This document shows positions 43,992 to 47,631 of a stretch of 64,000 bases of DNA, one piece after another. Numbering within the stretch: the first letter of the stretch is position 1; every line of letters starts with the position of its first letter. A model generated the notes under the pieces. The model did no database searches. It saw only the letters and a list, made by a program, of their open reading frames with translations, and was not told where the DNA came from. This DNA is from Coriobacteriia bacterium (GTDB lineage: Bacteria > Actinomycetota > Coriobacteriia > Anaerosomatales > SLCP01): NCBI GenBank assembly GCA_030603745.1, contig JAUVXE010000003.1, positions 131,923 to 195,922 on the forward strand. The letters are read 5' to 3'. The position numbers and the translations under genes were made by a program.

Positions 43992-44357
43992 ATGACGGAC
44001 CACCGCCTGTTCTCGATGCCGTTCGCGAAGGTCTACCCGCTCTACGTCCAGAAGGCCGAGCGCAAAGGGCGCACCTCGGACGAGGTCGACCACCTCATCT
44101 TCTGGCTCACCGGATACGACCGGTCAGGCCTCGAGCGCCACCTCGCCGAGGAGTCCGACCTGCGGACGTTCTTCGAGCAGGCGCCGGCGTTCAACCCGGA
44201 CAGCTCGCTCATCACCGGCGTGGTGTGCGGCGTTCGCGTCGAGGAGGTCGAGGACCCGCTGATGCGCAAGATCCGCTACCTCGACAAGCTGGTTGACGAG
44301 CTCGCGCGGGGGAAAGCACTGGAGAGGATCGTGCGTAAGGCCCCGGAGGGCTCGTAG
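43992..44357 (+). CDS. DUF2200 domain protein
   Basis: [32 protein letters not shown] is the family signature. Confidence 0.85.
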
Positions 44358-44400
44358 GCCCGGACCCGCGGGGCGTCCGCCGCTTCACCGGGAGGTCCAC

Positions 44401-44973
44401 ATGCGCCAGCTCATCTACTCCGCACTGCTCTCCGTCGATGGCCTCATCGACGCCGCCGACGGCGACTCCGCCTGGGCCACGCCCGATCCGGAGCTCCACC
44501 GCCACTTCAACGAGCTTGACCGCACCATGGGCGCCCACCTCTACGGGCGACGCATGTACGAGTTGATGGCCGCGTACTGGCCCACCGCCGACGAGCAGCC
44601 GGGGGCGCCGGACTACGAGGCGGAGTACGCTCGCATCTGGAAGGCGCTGCCCAAGGTCGTCTTCTCCAAGACGCTCGACCGCGTCGAGTGGAACGCGCGT
44701 CTCGTCGCAAGCGATGCCGCCGAGGAGGTCGCGCGGCTCAAGCAGCTGCCCGGCGGGCCGCTCGGGGTGGGGGGCGCCGAGCTCGCGACGTCGCTCGCGC
44801 GTGCCGGCCTCATCGACGAGTACCGCTTCTACGTGATGCCGGTAATCGTGGGGTCGGGGCGGCCGATGTTCGGTCCCCTCGGCGAGCATATCGACCTCGA
44901 GCCACTGGAGGTGCGGCGGTTCGGGTCCGGCGCCGTGCTCCTGCGATACCGCGCGTCGGCGGCGGGCGGGTAG
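44401..44973 (+). CDS. dihydrofolate reductase family protein (RibD C-terminal domain-like)
   Basis: MRQLIYSALLSVDG...YGRRMYELMAAYWP...LGVGGAELATSL...GLIDEYRFYVMPVIVGSG. Confidence 0.8.
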   Translation: MRQLIYSALLSVDGLIDAADGDSAWATPDPELHRHFNELDRTMGAHLYGRRMYELMAAYWPTADEQPGAPDYEAEYARIWKALPKVVFSKTLDRVEWNARLVASDAAEEVARLKQLPGGPLGVGGAELATSLARAGLIDEYRFYVMPVIVGSGRPMFGPLGEHIDLEPLEVRRFGSGAVLLRYRASAAGG

Positions 44974-45014
44974 CCGCGCCCGTGCGTCACGGCCGCGCCC
45001 TTGCGCGCAGCCGC

Positions 45015-45336
45015 TATACTGGACACACGAATCGGCTCGATCCCCCTGGAGGACGCGCGCATGCAGTCCGCACGGCTCCGCTAGTACGCCGGCCGCCCAT
45101 CCGAGGCGGCACGCGAGGCCCCGGGACCGGGGTCTCTTCGGCGTACCTACCGGAGTCGAACATGAGCCGCCACCTTCTCTCGCCCGCCCGCGCGTCGCAG
45201 GCATCGGCGAGCACCACACCCAACCGATAGCTGACCGGTCGTCGCCTTGCGCGCGATCCGGTCGGTCGTGTGCGCGCACCCGTTGCGCGCGCCGGATCCC
45301 CGCACGGGCGATGACCCTCGGCCAAGAGGAGTCATC
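45015..45336 (+). promoter_or_regulatory. candidate promoter (-10 TATACT at 45015-45020) plus an approximately 310-nt structured 5' leader with short uORFs upstream of the RlmN/Cfr-like gene
   Basis: - A Y-shaped set of nested stems: 45084-45090 pairs with 45140-45146 and encloses two hairpins.
- A 22-codon uORF at 45162-45230, with GGAG 6 nt upstream.
- Three copies of the self-complementary TGCGCGC (45247-45292).
- A hairpin CGATGAC...GTCATCG (45309-45337) that encloses the SD AAGAGGAG and the first base of the GTG start. Confidence 0.35.
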
Positions 45337-46356
45337 GTGCCTATCCGTCAACCCCACAGCGTCTACGACCTCGAGTTCGACGCGCTCGCCGAGGCCCTCG
45401 GGTCCGCCCGCGATGCCGCGCGCGTGTTCGAGGCGCTCTACCGCGAGCGACGCCCCGTTCCCCGCGAGCTGCTCGTACGTCTTGCGCCCGCCGTGCCCTC
45501 GGGGCTGCGCTCCGTTTCGCGCCAGCAGGGCAGCATGTCGACCAAGCACCTCTTCGAACTCGCCGAGGAGGGCGGGCGCGACAGCGCCGCGATCGAGTCG
45601 GTGCGCATCACTCGGCGGACCGGAGCGACCGCGTGCGTGTCGTCGCAGGCCGGCTGCGCGGTGCGGTGCGCCTTCTGCGCGTCCGGGGCGCAGGGGCTCG
45701 CGCGCGACCTGACGGCCGGGGAGATCGTCGAGCAGGTGATCGCGCTCGGCGCGGGCGTGAACCGGGTCGTGTACATGGGAGTGGGGGAGCCGCTCCACAA
45801 CCTCGACGCCGTGCTCACGTCGATGCGCATCCTGCGCGACCGCCGAGGGCTCGCGCTGCCCACCTCGGCGATGACGCTCTCGACGGTCGGCGATCCGGCC
45901 GGGCTCGCGCGCCTGCGCGAGGTCCACATGCGGCTCAACCTGACGATCTCGCTCCATGCCACCCGCGACGAGGTGCGTCATCGGCTCATGCCGGGTACCG
46001 CGCGCCACGGCGTCGAGGACGTGGTGGGAGCGGCGCAGGCGTGGTCGCGGCGGCACCGGCGGCCCGTGACCTACGCCTATCTGGTACTGCCCGGCGTGAA
46101 CGACTCGCGGGCCGACGCGCGCCGGCTCGCGCGCTGGTTCGCGCACGGAGACGGCCGCGTGAACCTCATGCGCTGCAACCCGGGCGTGAGCGGCGCGGCG
46201 ATGCCGGTCGCAGCCGACCGCGACCTGCACCGGATGCTCGAGGCGCTCCGGTCGCGCGGGGTCGAGGCGGGCGTGCGCGACACTCAGGGCCTCGACGTGC
46301 AGGCCGCGTGCGGGCAGCTGCGGCTTCGGCGGCAGACGCGTGGCGGCGGGAGGTGA
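45337..46356 (+). CDS. RlmN/Cfr family radical SAM 23S rRNA (adenine-C2/C8) methyltransferase
   Basis: ATACVSSQAGCAVRCAFCASG (CxxxCxxC cluster plus the upstream Cys), MGVGEPLHN, and the C-terminal catalytic Cys context VQAACGQL. GTG start at 45337. Confidence 0.85.
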   Translation: MPIRQPHSVYDLEFDALAEALGSARDAARVFEALYRERRPVPRELLVRLAPAVPSGLRSVSRQQGSMSTKHLFELAEEGGRDSAAIESVRITRRTGATACVSSQAGCAVRCAFCASGAQGLARDLTAGEIVEQVIALGAGVNRVVYMGVGEPLHNLDAVLTSMRILRDRRGLALPTSAMTLSTVGDPAGLARLREVHMRLNLTISLHATRDEVRHRLMPGTARHGVEDVVGAAQAWSRRHRRPVTYAYLVLPGVNDSRADARRLARWFAHGDGRVNLMRCNPGVSGAAMPVAADRDLHRMLEALRSRGVEAGVRDTQGLDVQAACGQLRLRRQTRGGGR

Positions 46357-46377
46357 GCGCCGTCCCCGGACGGCCGC

Positions 46378-47631
46378 CTACGCCGGGCCGCCGCCGTAGC
46401 GCTCGCGCAGGAACCGCGCGACGTTCCCGGGGCCGTCCCACTCGCCGAGCAGGCCCGCGACCCGCTCGGCGTTCGCGCGGTAGCCGGGCTCGGTGAGCAG
46501 CGCGTCGAGGGCCGAGCCGATGCGCGCGACCGAGAGCTCGCGCTTGCGCAGGCGGATCGCGCACCCCTGGCGCGCGTAGAACTCGACGTTCATCTCCTGT
46601 TCCGGCTGCAGTCCCACGCCGAGGAACGGCGTCCCGGAGAGCGCCGCCGTCTGCACGGTGCCCTCACCGCCATGGATGAACGCGACGTCGGCGAGCGGGT
46701 TGACCTTGTGGGCGGGGAGCCAGTCGGTGACGAGTACGCGGTCGGGCAGCGTCGGCACGTCGTTCCCGAGGTGGCGCCTGACCGGCGCGATCACGCGGTA
46801 GGGGAGCTCGGCCAAAGCGAGCAGCGCCCGTCGCAGCACCTTCGCATTGGCCGAGGAGCCCATCGCGAAGTAGACCACCGGCAGGTCGCGCGGCATCTCG
46901 AGGATCTCGGCGGGCACCTCGCCGTCGAGCCGTGCGAACACGGGGCCCACGTAGCGGTAGGGGGCGGGAAGCTCGGGCTCGCCGACGATCTCGGGCGTGT
47001 TCGCGACGAGCATCTCGTCGGCGTCGAGGAACTCCACCATCCGGCTCCACCTCGGCGTGCCCACCGTGTCCGCGACGCGATTGAGCCTGCCGAGCAGCAT
47101 CCGCGAGCGGCGGCCCCAGCCGTTGAAGGCGCGGTCGAGCGTCCGTTGCGGCAGCCAGGTGAACGGCGGCACGCTGAGCGCGTCGGGCCAGATCCCCATT
47201 CGCAGGTCGAAGAAGGCGCGGGTGAGCGCGATGGGGGTGACGGCCACGAGCGGAAGCTTCGCCGCGCGGGCCGAGTAGTAGGTGCTGAGCGTGAAGCCGA
47301 TGACGATGGCGGCCGGCTGCAGGCGCTCGAAGAGGGCGAGCTCGGCGTTCACCCGCGAGACGAGCTCGTCGTGGGTGAAGAACCGACCGCCCCACTCGAG
47401 GCGGTCGGCCCGCATCAGCTCCTCGGTACGCTCGGGCGTGAGGCGCGGCTCGAGGGTGTGGCACGGGAAGCCCGCCTCGGCGATGAGGTGCTCGTACTCG
47501 CCCCCGTAGCCGTAGAAGTGACACTCGAAGCTGCCCGTGCAGGCGCGCGCGACCTCGATCATGCGCGTGGTCTCGGCGATGTTGAGCGTCTCGGGCCCAA
47601 AGAGCAGTATCGGCAGCGCGGTGTGCGACAT
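46378..47631 (-). CDS. GT1-family (UDP-glycosyltransferase/MGT-like) glycosyltransferase
   Basis: The C-terminal nucleotide-sugar motif is FIHGGEGTVQTAALSGTPFLGVGLQPEQEMN, and the length (417 aa) fits a GT-B fold. Confidence 0.75.
   Translation of the reverse strand: MSHTALPILLFGPETLNIAETTRMIEVARACTGSFECHFYGYGGEYEHLIAEAGFPCHTLEPRLTPERTEELMRADRLEWGGRFFTHDELVSRVNAELALFERLQPAAIVIGFTLSTYYSARAAKLPLVAVTPIALTRAFFDLRMGIWPDALSVPPFTWLPQRTLDRAFNGWGRRSRMLLGRLNRVADTVGTPRWSRMVEFLDADEMLVANTPEIVGEPELPAPYRYVGPVFARLDGEVPAEILEMPRDLPVVYFAMGSSANAKVLRRALLALAELPYRVIAPVRRHLGNDVPTLPDRVLVTDWLPAHKVNPLADVAFIHGGEGTVQTAALSGTPFLGVGLQPEQEMNVEFYARQGCAIRLRKRELSVARIGSALDALLTEPGYRANAERVAGLLGEWDGPGNVARFLRERYGGGPA

Follow-up and report, generated by a model that had tools for sequence, protein, structure and literature searches.

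Positions 45015–45336 of the window (the whole 64,000-nucleotide stretch of Coriobacteriia DNA that was analysed) appear to comprise a promoter and an approximately 310-nt 5′ leader that we read as an ermD/ermA-type attenuator, in which ribosomes would control translation of an RlmN/Cfr-like gene; we put the probability of this reading at roughly 0.65. The region lies in a gap of 363 nt between the stop codon of the upstream RibD_C gene (44973) and the GTG at 45337. The presence of a tiny open frame with an Arg-Leu-Arg (RLR) sequence in this ~310-nt leader suggests that the methylase gene is turned on by antibiotic-stalled ribosomes. An attenuation-like architecture had been proposed for this stretch in a sequence-only reading, and comparison with orthologous loci supports it: both upstream open reading frames (uORFs), their Shine-Dalgarno sites (SDs) and the hairpin hiding the ribosome-binding site (RBS) are conserved, and the leader accompanies the gene in each of three distinct settings (next to RibD_C and a GT1 glycosyltransferase, next to an integrase and an HSDR_N protein, or next to a GNAT and an SDR).

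The leader was found in three other genomes or contigs (G003, G009 and the metagenome contig L327), always 5′ of the same gene, giving a comparative base of four leaders from three lineages. Over six pairs, identity was 75–91% in the leader, compared to 70–89% in the coding sequence and 51–54% in comparable flanks, with the leaders of G003 and G009 being 91% identical. By BLAST against 401 Coriobacteriia genomes the leader was present only in G000, G003 and G009; the matches in 99 other Coriobacteriia genomes were 20–55 nt long with E values of at least 2.9e-5, and were treated as chance. A pattern built on the P6 hairpin (see below) matched five times in genome contigs, two of these being G003 and G009 and the other three unrelated chance matches without leader similarity, and a pattern for the SD2 region gave no matches in the metagenome collection.

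The TATACT box singled out in the sequence-only reading is present at the 5′ edge of this conserved stretch, and transcription would start near 45027. No conserved −35 element was seen in the leaders, and a scan with the sigma-70 consensus did not find a promoter. One RNA run, made from the sample of origin, gave no reads on this stretch, which is neutral as to expression. At the other end, judging from the orthologous frames, GTG 45337 is the true start codon: orthologues use an ATG or a GTG at the equivalent position, and 21 nt upstream of it their frame is blocked. An in-frame TTG at 45247, considered as the start of an N-terminal extension, is therefore unused and was dropped. The features of the promoter and the 5′ half of the leader are as follows:

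45015–45020, forward strand: −10-like box TATACT; GCTATACT is identical in all four leaders, and homology among the orthologues starts here
45034–45038, forward strand: 5′ arm of helix P0, GGCTC, pairing with GAGCC (45164–45168), which overlaps the uORF2 start
45048–45053, forward strand: SD1, GGAGGA, 7 nt 5′ of the uORF1 ATG
45061–45084, forward strand: uORF1, seven codons, the proposed sensor; its ATG and 7-codon length are kept in all four leaders
45072–45079, forward strand: 5′ arm of helix P1a, ACGGCTCC, in uORF1 codons 4–7, pairing with GGAGTCGA (45152–45159) at the SD of uORF2
45084–45091, forward strand: 5′ arm of helix P1b, GTACGCCG, pairing with CGGCGTAC (45139–45146) and closing a three-way junction
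45092–45110, forward strand: hairpin P2, GCCGCC-loop-GGCGGC, with arms at 45092–45097 and 45105–45110
45115–45136, forward strand: hairpin P3, GAGGCCCCG-GGAC-CGGGGTCTC, with arms at 45115–45123 and 45128–45136
45152–45155, forward strand: SD2, GGAG, 6 nt 5′ of uORF2 and sequestered in P1a
45162–45230, forward strand: uORF2, a predicted frame of 22 codons, MSRHLLSPARASQASASTTPNR-stop, presumed to be translated

The most likely sensor is uORF1, with its seven codons and its RLR, rather than the 22-codon ORF. The sequence-only reading had listed uORF1, which is present as described, but missed its SD, its RLR ending and the pairing of its codons 5–6 with SD2, and laid the emphasis on the 22-codon ORF instead. 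uORF2 has no +x+ motif, and no known arrest motif was found in it. SD1 is invariant in sequence and spacing in all four leaders, while the sequence of the spacer varies. The uORF1 peptide is MQSARLR-stop in the window and MPSGRLR-stop in the other three leaders, so that its invariant residues (S3, R5, L6 and R7) and variable ones (2 and 4) are read from two haplotypes only, among four leaders from three lineages; one Arg codon change is synonymous. Across the whole genome there are 675 GGAGG-N4-9-ATG sites, and 40 of their ORFs have 4–15 codons. A +x+ motif occurs in four of these 40 and RLR in a single one, uORF1 itself; nothing notable lies downstream of the other three.

In passages of PMC6310831, RLR is named as a signature motif in leader peptides of macrolide resistance. 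According to parts of PMC8298421, the leader peptide ErmDL (MTHSMRLR) stalls the ribosome under erythromycin and telithromycin with Leu7 occupying the P site and Arg8 the A site, tolerates only Ala or Gly in place of Ser4, and loses stalling when its N-terminal context is altered, RLR alone thus being no guarantee of arrest. The S-x-R-L-R core of uORF1 is in register with Ser4-Met5-Arg6-Leu7-Arg8 of ErmDL. By analogy, arrest on uORF1 would be expected when Leu6 (CTC, 45076–45078) occupies the P site and Arg7 (CGC, 45079–45081) the A site. The RLR codons are also held by the P1a pairing, and selection on the peptide is therefore inseparable from selection on the RNA.

The nested three-way structure proposed earlier was recovered, GTACGCC (45084–45090) pairing with GGCGTAC (45140–45146) and enclosing the GCCGCC/GGCGGC and GAGGCCCCG/CGGGGTCTC hairpins. 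P0 (consensus helix 1) is 100% paired with two one-sided changes, P1b (helix 4) has eight pairs and is 100% paired, and P1a (helix 3) has eight pairs and is 95.8% paired, a synonymous CGG-to-CGA change keeping its pair (G:U to A:U). P3 shows one two-sided change (C:G to U:A) and three pairs with one-sided wobble changes in the four-sequence alignment. The stem of P2 is kept with a different loop in each lineage, and a strain variant (C>T at 45102) falls inside this loop. In the free leader the probability of SD2 being unpaired was 0.00 in the three orthologues modelled; when a ribosome was placed over codon 6 of uORF1 as a mask, equilibrium folding gave 0.14–0.29. Here the footprint of an arrested ribosome was assumed to reach 12 nt 5′ and 15 nt 3′ of the first P-site base, which for Leu6 corresponds to 45064–45091 and includes the 5′ arms of both P1a and P1b (45072–45091).

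The 22-codon ORF was likewise confirmed, with GGAG 6 nt upstream. It has 22 codons in all four leaders despite 3-nt and 1-nt indels, its ends being conserved and its middle not; an open frame of this length is not improbable in DNA of 70% G+C. One could suppose that the conserved unit is instead a gene for a small protein, either uORF2 as a micropeptide or a 103-aa ORF on the minus strand (45014–45325), which spans the leader and matches an ORF in G009 at 53% over 60 aa, and the G+C of the codon-position class common to uORF2 and the antisense ORF is indeed raised at 45070–45190. We find this hardly credible. The antisense ORFs are 103, 72, 144 and 53 aa long and differ in starts, stops and frames, those of G003 and G009 lying in different frames despite leaders that are 91% identical. 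Moreover, the antisense ORF has no Pfam family, one-base indels separate the leaders and the middle of uORF2 is not conserved as a peptide. The antisense protein is thus largely refuted by its inconsistent length, start, stop and frame, and we return to the attenuator and its 3′ half, where the features are:

45232–45264, forward strand: hairpin P4 of the OFF fold, in which the segment A side (45232–45245) is paired with segment B (45251–45264)
45238–45246, forward strand: segment A, GTCGTCGCC, the proposed anti-sequestor, complementary to segment C, GGCGATGAC (45307–45315)
45270–45292, forward strand: hairpin P5, GTGCGCGC-loop-GCGCGCGC, with loops that vary between lineages
45293–45299, forward strand: segment B′, CCGGATC, pairing with GATCCGG (45255–45261) in the ON fold
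45308–45338, forward strand: P6, the hairpin sequestering the main RBS, GCGATGACCCTC-loop-GAGGAGTCATCGT, which holds SD3 and the GT of the GTG start codon
45326–45331, forward strand: SD3, GAGGAG, within P6
45337–46356, forward strand: the regulated gene, encoding a radical-SAM protein of 339 aa that is a predicted RNA methylase in a third RlmN/Cfr-like clade

Mutually exclusive pairings had been suggested for this part of the leader from its GCGCGC copies and from GATCCGG/CCGGATC (45255–45261 and 45293–45299). All of these are present, and alternative folds, in which the main RBS is trapped (OFF) or freed (ON), exist in all four orthologues. The stem CGATGAC/GTCATCG (45309–45315 and 45331–45337) was also confirmed and takes in the SD along with the initial G of the GTG. 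P6 (helix 13) is 97.2% paired with a variable loop, and covariation links the initial base of the start codon to the base opposite it in P6, the pair being C:G in the two GTG leaders and U:A in the two ATG leaders. P5 shows one two-sided change (G:C to A:U). P4 (helix 9; 13 pairs, 97.4% paired) is almost invariant and so adds little covariation evidence. The A:C helix has nine of nine standard pairs in the three leaders counted and also forms in the ON fold of L327. The B:B′ helix is found in the ON folds of all four leaders and is made from sequences that differ between the window, G003/G009 and L327, B′ varying by lineage with its complementarity to B retained.

For the window, G003, G009 and L327, respectively, the energies of the OFF fold are −64.7, −60.1, −50.7 and −55.9 kcal/mol, and those of the ON fold −60.4, −55.7, −51.3 and −55.6 kcal/mol. 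The two folds thus lie 0.3–4.4 kcal/mol apart in every leader, with OFF more stable than ON by about 4.3 kcal/mol in two of the four. Masking segment A led to formation of the B:B′ helix in all four leaders, and the ON fold beats a state in which A is free, B:B′ is formed and P6 is intact by 3.6–6.7 kcal/mol.

We propose that the leader is a compact two-uORF relay, in which the arrest codons of uORF1 pair directly with the SD of uORF2. At rest, sequence and folding point to SD2 being paired with uORF1 codons 4–7 (P1a) and to the SD and start codon of the gene being locked in P6. In the first step, a ribosome carrying a macrolide or ketolide would translate uORF1 (M-Q-S-A-R-L-R) and stall once Leu6 occupies the P site and Arg7 the A site, in the manner of ErmDL at its Arg-Leu-Arg. 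The stalled ribosome would then lie over both P1 5′ arms and so free SD2. In the second step, which is the weakest part of the proposal, ribosomes would translate uORF2 to its stop codon (45228–45230), unzipping P4 (A:B), and segment B may then pair with B′. With the ribosome gone, segment A (GTCGTCGCC) would capture the P6 5′ arm, segment C (GGCGATGAC), by pairing with it and would thereby release the SD and GTG of the methylase. The part played by uORF2 would then be remodelling by a passing ribosome and not a second stall. The product would methylate rRNA, relieving the action of the drug. Ribosome masks at any position in uORF2 did not open SD3 in equilibrium folding (0.03–0.48 unpaired), and the second step hence rests on a kinetic argument.

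The closed SD3 of the equilibrium models would also suit a sensor of the same kind coupled to a different output, for example premature transcription termination, Rho access or mRNA stability instead of RBS access. P5 and P6 are strong G+C-rich hairpins, and terminators in actinobacteria can be without U-tracts; an RLR uORF with transcription attenuation reportedly features in a mef/mel study. At hflXr, as described in passages of PMC6310831, an RLR uORF drives transcription attenuation. However, a scan of 44900–46500 gave no terminator-like site, and P6 covers exactly the SD and two bases of the start codon, with covariation, which is a hallmark of translational control. Since, in addition, the conserved alternative fold frees the RBS only, we consider a transcriptional output unlikely and prefer control of access to the methylase RBS.

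Taken as a whole, the leader is more stable than its shuffles (minimum free energy −164.6 kcal/mol, compared to −144.1 ± 5.7 kcal/mol in 100 shuffles; z = −3.63, with no shuffle as good), and its stems are kept in the orthologues. In a consensus structure for three sequences, 96.7% of cells are paired. Six two-sided pair changes were counted, compared to 2.0 ± 1.2 in shuffles (1 of 500 reaching six) and 0–1 with the partners slid, in a comparison that is favoured by the consensus having been derived from the same three sequences and in which most helix pairs never vary. These unvarying pairs and the small number of lineages, three only, would fit a structured but unregulated 5′ UTR, involved in mRNA stability or low constitutive translation, with conservation reflecting recent shared ancestry; so would the recently mobile appearance of the unit, which has an integrase beside it in G009. 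We judge this quite unlikely, given that the coding sequences have diverged to 70–74% between lineages with the leader being no less conserved, that changes are in loops or compensatory, that the B:B′ helix has been rebuilt from different sequences, and that uORF1 matches the ErmDL core specifically.

At the Rfam gathering thresholds no covariance model matched in the leader, and at E ≤ 10 there was only a spurious lncRNA match of 15.5 bits. Such a blank is alone insufficient against an unrecognised riboswitch or sRNA, and the 5′ half does form a stable, conserved three-way junction, as might be expected of an RNA that binds a ligand or a protein with the uORFs being incidental. This could be a riboswitch, or a substrate mimic through which the methylase autoregulates; ErmC autoregulates on its own mRNA. 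We regard either as very unlikely: the stems are kept while junction bases vary by lineage, as do the P2, P3 and P5 loops, the opposite of a ligand-binding riboswitch; the invariant stretches are instead SDs, start codons and uORF ends; and the strong-SD RLR uORF is unique in the genome. The unrecognised riboswitch offered as an alternative in the sequence-only reading is thus disfavoured, and the relay remains the preferred explanation.

Several known systems resemble this leader in part. In ermD of Bacillus a short SD-preceded uORF with Ser-x-Arg-Leu-Arg, for which the same Leu-P/Arg-A arrest would be expected here by analogy, is followed by a long structured spacer (276 nt between ermDL and ermD, from passages of PMC8298421, compared to 252 nt from the uORF1 stop to the gene here), and a second leader peptide is believed to be present (PMC8274638, in part). 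The methylase regulated there is an rRNA methyltransferase, and the product here is predicted likewise. The two differ in that there is no sequence homology between them and in that uORF1 here has seven codons, with the stop directly after RLR. Moreover, the enzyme here is of the radical-SAM RlmN/Cfr-like type rather than an Erm N6-dimethylase, and the host belongs to an uncultured Coriobacteriia lineage. For ermA of Tn554, one published model outlined in PMC8274638 is a cascade, in which a stall during synthesis of the first peptide turns on the second, and the methylase RBS is exposed by ribosomes translating, or stalling on, this second peptide. In contrast, uORF2 here has no recognisable arrest motif, and remodelling by a passing ribosome is proposed instead; the interplay of the two leader peptides in ermA and ermB is itself unsettled, according to the same parts of PMC8274638.

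The leader rli80 of hflXr in Listeria monocytogenes, in the account given in passages of PMC6310831, has a 14-aa RLR ORF and alternative structures and responds to ribosomes stalled by antibiotics. Under its control is an additional copy of a housekeeping ribosome factor, which serves as a resistance gene. rli80 works by transcription termination and anti-termination, whereas the hairpin here hides the SD and start codon and no terminator-like site was found. The cfr gene on pSCFS1 is preceded by uORFs and an RNA element, and its product, an rRNA methylase of the radical-SAM type, falls in the same superfamily; stalling and an RNA rearrangement that reveals an occluded RBS have been put forward for it in parts of PMC8752094, as a proposal only. 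Those passages describe two overlapping uORFs and report no RLR, and the protein here is outside the Cfr clade. Leader-peptide attenuation had been called established for erm and cfr in the sequence-only reading, which holds for erm and not for cfr. Leader peptides of the RLR kind are natural labels for genes that respond when a drug blocks the ribosome, and an ErmDL-like sensor in front of an RlmN/Cfr paralogue would thus make a specific prediction on the purpose of this enzyme clade.

The gene product matches PF04055 (Radical_SAM) with E = 1.4e-16, and its C100, C107, C111, C114 and C325 align with C118, C125, C129, C132 and C355 of the E. coli protein. All five catalytic cysteines are Cys in each of 40 aligned sequences; we take C118 and C355 of E. 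coli to be the two extra catalytic cysteines beside CxxxCxxC. These results place the gene in the RlmN/Cfr superfamily, as the sequence-only reading had done, but neither in RlmN proper nor in Cfr. The RlmN equivalog model TIGR00048 gave 214.5 bits, below its cut-off of 290, and the Cfr models NF000424 and TIGR04432 gave 164.3 and 162.3 bits, below cut-offs of 530 and 550; identity to Cfr and Cfr(B) is 31%. PF21016, the domain at the N-terminus of RlmN, had no match in the gene product; it is recorded for RlmN-type matches and unrecorded for the protein clusters of the clade. A separate RlmN-like gene, 41% identical, is present in the genome on contig C12. In a plain neighbour-joining tree, built without support values, the relatives of the gene form a clade separate from both RlmN and Cfr. 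A profile-based locus search with a protein alignment returned, among the matches listed, mostly ordinary RlmN, and only L112 was useful.

Tentatively, this third and unrecognised clade of RlmN/Cfr-type methylases may be an inducible ribosome-protection (antibiotic resistance) family, equipped in Coriobacteriia with an ErmDL-like macrolide/ketolide sensor, which we hold to be possible rather than probable. It might methylate A2503 or some other nucleotide in the peptidyl-transferase centre or exit tunnel, and its methylation chemistry could be different from that of Erm and Cfr. Against a macrolide response, the known activity of Cfr is not mainly a defence against 14-membered macrolides, which are what RLR peptides sense. 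Clostridial Cfr-like paralogues that were tested had no A2503 methylation, and the one assayed on tiamulin gave no resistance; for other Cfr-like paralogues functional assignment has been elusive (both from passages of PMC5062987).

No RLR-type uORF was found among 44 distinct upstream regions of relatives from outside the Coriobacteriia. In Proteobacteria a relative that is 48–54% identical lies downstream of a TetR/AcrR gene and adjoins floR and tet(G), and the block TetR-methylase-LysR-floR is 99.7–100% identical across more than ten proteobacterial genera. A 33-aa "uORF" of the proteobacterial loci is probably the C-terminus of the TetR/AcrR gene annotated there in a plasmid record. The open-access full texts searched contained no description of a floR-linked or RLR-controlled RlmN-like gene. 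Since a relative already travels with floR and tet(G) in environmental Proteobacteria, the prediction made here bears on resistance-gene surveillance. Relatives, too, are arranged as inducible genes would be: in five of nine other actinobacterial loci a short uORF precedes the gene by about 270 nt, and in Actinobacteria of the Nitriliruptoria type the gene stands behind a different uORF of 7–8 codons, MGL-x-L-x-F, which is probably leaderless.

The window (C3:131923-195922) belongs to a 2.14 Mb genome (70% G+C, 28 contigs, 98.5% complete). Its RlmN/Cfr-like methylase gene and the leader in front of it are arranged as follows.

Ends at 44973: RibD_C-domain gene, upstream of the leader
45015-45336: leader, about 310 nt
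45061-45084: uORF1, 7 codons
45152-45155: Shine-Dalgarno (SD) site of uORF2 (SD2)
45162-45230: uORF2, 22 codons
45337-46356, + strand: RlmN/Cfr-like methylase gene, Radical_SAM domain
46378-47631, − strand: GT1 glycosyltransferase, convergent, 21 nt from the methylase gene stop

Against the RlmN equivalog model, whose cut-off is 290 bits, the methylase protein reaches 214.5; two Cfr models give 164 and 162 bits where 530 and 550 are required. Since contig C12 carries another RlmN-like gene, 41% identical over the matched part, the window gene is an extra paralogue. GTG 45337 is the real start: orthologues begin with ATG or GTG at the corresponding site, the orthologue frame is closed 21 nt upstream of it and the N-termini of the family align from there. 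Long spurious ORFs, typical for DNA of this G+C content, overlap the locus at 44212-46230 (−; 672 aa, across two real genes), 44688-45230 (+; 180 aa, in the uORF2 frame) and 45247-46356 (+; a TTG-extended version of the methylase gene); orthologues and Pfam gave them no support.

Homologues at 47–71% identity occur in Coriobacteriia, Nitriliruptoraceae and Egicoccus, an Ilumatobacteraceae MAG, one Micromonospora and many Alphaproteobacteria. A neighbour-joining tree built from 40 sequences, which carries no support values, places the family in a clade separate from RlmN proper and from Cfr/Cfr(B). The window protein shares 36% identity with the RlmN encoded elsewhere in its genome and 31% with both Cfr and E. 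coli RlmN. The precomputed Pfam annotation lists PF04055 alone for the family's clusters and PF21016 in addition for RlmN-type hits. Five cysteines aligned with E. coli RlmN C118, C125, C129, C132 and C355, which we take to be the catalytic ones, are kept in 40/40 sequences. According to one study, other Cfr-like paralogues lacked A2503 methylation and the one assayed on tiamulin gave no resistance (PMC5062987); superfamily membership thus does not establish a resistance function.

Among 60 relatives, only two genomes of other genera, G003 (67% identity) and G009 (69%), have an orthologue, all remaining matches being at most 46% identical and resembling the ordinary RlmN copy. Both carry the leader, and leader DNA is confined to these two and the window's own genome among 401 Coriobacteriia genomes searched. 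A fourth copy lies on L327, a 1.59-Mb metagenome contig whose gene is 70.8% identical. Across the six pairs of leaders, identity is 75–91% in the leader versus 70–89% in the coding sequence; homology begins at an invariant GCTATACT, and the 200-nt flanks on both sides are at background (51–54%). Upstream and downstream neighbours are the RibD_C and GT1 genes in the window, a tyrosine recombinase and an HSDR_N protein in G009, and a GNAT acetyltransferase and an SDR dehydrogenase in L327. Because neighbours differ in each of these three copies, leader and gene are one portable unit. The window's glycosyltransferase matches EryCIII-like_C/UDPGT, with weak scores on macrolide glycosyltransferase models (TIGR01426, 59 bits against a cut-off of 260); since it does not adjoin the methylase gene in G009 or L327, its proximity may be coincidence. 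In G009 the recombinase (contig L032, 1405-2511; Phage_integrase and Phage_int_SAM_4) follows purA and lies directly 5' of the unit. There are hints that this copy sits in an integrated element.

All motifs and coordinates listed in the sequence-only reading were recovered from the window. The structured leader it proposed has a minimum free energy of −164.6 kcal/mol, versus −144.1 ± 5.7 for shuffles (z = −3.63). A consensus fold, computed from three and then four leaders, contains the following helices.

P0: GGCUC with GAGCC, the latter overlapping the uORF2 start
P1a: uORF1 codons 4-7 (45072-79) with GGAGUCGA (45152-59); sequesters SD2
P1b: 45084-91 with 45139-46; closes a three-way junction
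P2, P3: local hairpins within the three-way junction
Unnamed hairpin: within uORF2
P4: 45232-45 with 45251-64, segment A with segment B
P5: 45270-77 with 45285-92
P6: 45308-19 with 45326-38; locks away the SD GAGGAG together with bases 1 and 2 of the start codon

On three sequences 96.7% of cells are paired and six pairs changed on both sides, compared with 2.0 ± 1.2 in shuffles (1/500 reaching six) and 0–1 with slid partners; as the structure was derived from the same sequences, effectively only three lineages, this covariation is support and not proof. We regard the first base of the start codon as the most telling case in the alignment: it is G opposite C where the leader has GTG (two copies) and A opposite U where it has ATG (two copies). 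Contigs 96–98% identical across window positions 44942-45417 were seen in a soil run (X3) and a hot-spring metagenome run (X4), the hot-spring contig lacking 19 nt at 44973, just past the upstream gene's stop. Strain variants at 45008, 45025, 45039 and 45102 fall outside uORF1 and the stems, one of them in the P2 loop.

The attenuation-like architecture suggested earlier is supported and sharpened, leader and helices being kept in orthologues. Its alternative, a riboswitch (or a protein-binding leader), we judge unlikely: Rfam holds no match to the leader, and loops and junctions are the parts that vary between lineages. A structured 5' UTR without regulation appears less likely than attenuation. 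An antisense protein was rejected, the ORFs of 103, 72, 144 and 53 aa in the four leaders differing in frame and ends.

The candidate sensor is uORF1. Its SD, GGAGGA (45048-53), stands exactly 7 nt 5' of it in all four copies, across a spacer of varying sequence. In the window the peptide is MQSARLR; the three remaining copies encode MPSGRLR. Ser3, Arg5, Leu6 and Arg7 are constant, residues 2 and 4 vary, and the Arg5 codon change from CGG to CGA is synonymous. As a genome-wide control, GGAGG-N4-9-ATG sites were passed through nested filters. There are 675 such sites, 40 of them ORFs of 4–15 codons; four of these have the +x+ motif, a class that includes Arg-Leu-Arg (RLR), and the single RLR case is uORF1. 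Published work names RLR as the signature of leader peptides for macrolide resistance (PMC6310831). On the ermD leader peptide ErmDL (MTHSMRLR), erythromycin and telithromycin arrest the ribosome when Leu7 occupies the P site and Arg8 the A site; Ser4 of ErmDL is replaceable by Ala or Gly only, and a short MRLR peptide stalls too (PMC8298421). Counted from RLR, the serine of uORF1 falls at the ErmDL position, and the uORF1 stop lies 252 nt from the methylase gene, compared with a 276-nt spacer between ermDL and ermD (PMC8298421).

Sequence comparison and folding support the leader as an ErmDL-like, RLR-based, two-uORF translational attenuator, a known kind that would now stand before an RlmN/Cfr-like clade without earlier characterisation; full-text searches of a collection of open-access papers found none on this clade or such a leader. 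We put the probability that ribosome stalling controls the methylase gene at roughly 0.65. Whether macrolides are the inducer is about an even call, and a relay through uORF2 is a tentative proposal, somewhat short of even.

Sequence and folding likewise support a resting RNA in which SD2 and the main ribosome-binding site (RBS) would be hidden. The proposed switch involves these segments.

A: 45232-45245, in the P4 5' arm; core GUCGUCGCC at 45238-46
B: 45251-45264, the P4 3' arm
B': 45293-45299, just upstream of C
C: 45307-45319
D: SD and start codon

We infer that in a first step a drug-bound ribosome would stall on uORF1 once Leu6 occupies the P site. If it shields 45064-45091, from 12 nt 5' to 15 nt 3' of the first P-site base, as assumed in the modelling, it would cover both P1 5' arms and free SD2. 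In the second and weakest step, ribosomes translating uORF2 would unzip P4, B' would capture B and, after termination, A would invade P6, freeing the SD and GTG. The core of A is also complementary to GG(C/U)GAUGAC in the P6 5' arm: A:C has 9/9 standard pairs in the three leaders counted, and the helix also appears in the ON fold of L327. The 3' half was folded with P6 forced (OFF, main RBS trapped), with A:C forced (ON, RBS free) or with A masked.

Folding energies of the 3' half (kcal/mol; OFF, ON, segment A masked)
Window: −64.7, −60.4, −53.7
G003: −60.1, −55.7, −51.9
G009: −50.7, −51.3, −47.7
L327: −55.9, −55.6, −50.7

ON is lower by 3.6–6.7 kcal/mol than the masked state, which mimics a ribosome finishing uORF2 and in which B:B' forms and P6 stays. 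B:B' also forms in the ON fold, in 4/4 leaders and from differing sequences: the window uses GAUCCGG and CCGGAUC, G003 and G009 use a GCGCGC pairing, and L327 uses GCGAUUCGG and CCGAUUCGC. Equilibrium folding with ribosome masks does not reproduce the switch, SD2 rising only from 0.00 to 0.14–0.29 unpaired and the methylase gene's SD (45326-31) being opened by no ribosome position on uORF2. The length of uORF2, 22 codons, is constant across the four leaders, and its peptide is conserved at the ends and not in the middle; the +x+ motif was not found in it in any of the four. It is possible that the same sensor acts through transcription attenuation or mRNA stabilisation, but a scan around leader and gene found no terminator-like site and P6 is built around the start codon, both of which argue against transcription attenuation and for translational control.

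Outside the Coriobacteriia group, the RLR uORF was not found in 44 distinct upstream regions. A different, conserved uORF of 7–8 codons lies ~270–275 nt upstream of the family gene in five of nine other actinobacterial loci examined (L272, L242, L223 [=L112 about 2231-2254], L257 and L286), encoding the Nitriliruptoraceae-type peptides MGLQLYF, MGLLLFY, MGLLLFQ, MMGQLLYL and MGLILHFS; L271, L225 and L295 lack it, and L227 could not be used. This uORF begins only 8–9 nt past a TAGNNT box and is therefore probably leaderless; it probably represents a leader peptide heading a ~270-nt leader. Long G and C runs at the MAG contig end in L227 (1-160), upstream of a Nitriliruptoraceae family gene, look like an assembly artefact.

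A family member on Rhodobacter xanthinilyticus plasmid pEJ03 (L282, NZ_CP017784.1, 3134-7363) shares 54% identity with the window protein over the matched part; the genes there run IS1247 transposase, TetR/AcrR, family gene ('rlmN'), LysR, floR, tetR(G), tet(G). No paper on the floR-linked block was found in the open-access full-text search. The TetR-rlmN-like-LysR-floR block recurs at 99.7–100% identity across more than ten genera (loci L233, L236, L238, L239, L254, L259, L261, L262, L263, L270 and L279 besides L282; titles name Nitrospira, Brevundimonas, Hyphomicrobium, Paracoccus, Kaistia, Devosia, Sphingomonas, Parapusillimonas and Tabrizicola). The block has the look of a mobile module that spread recently, a context that fits, without proving, an inducible, mobile resistance-type gene.
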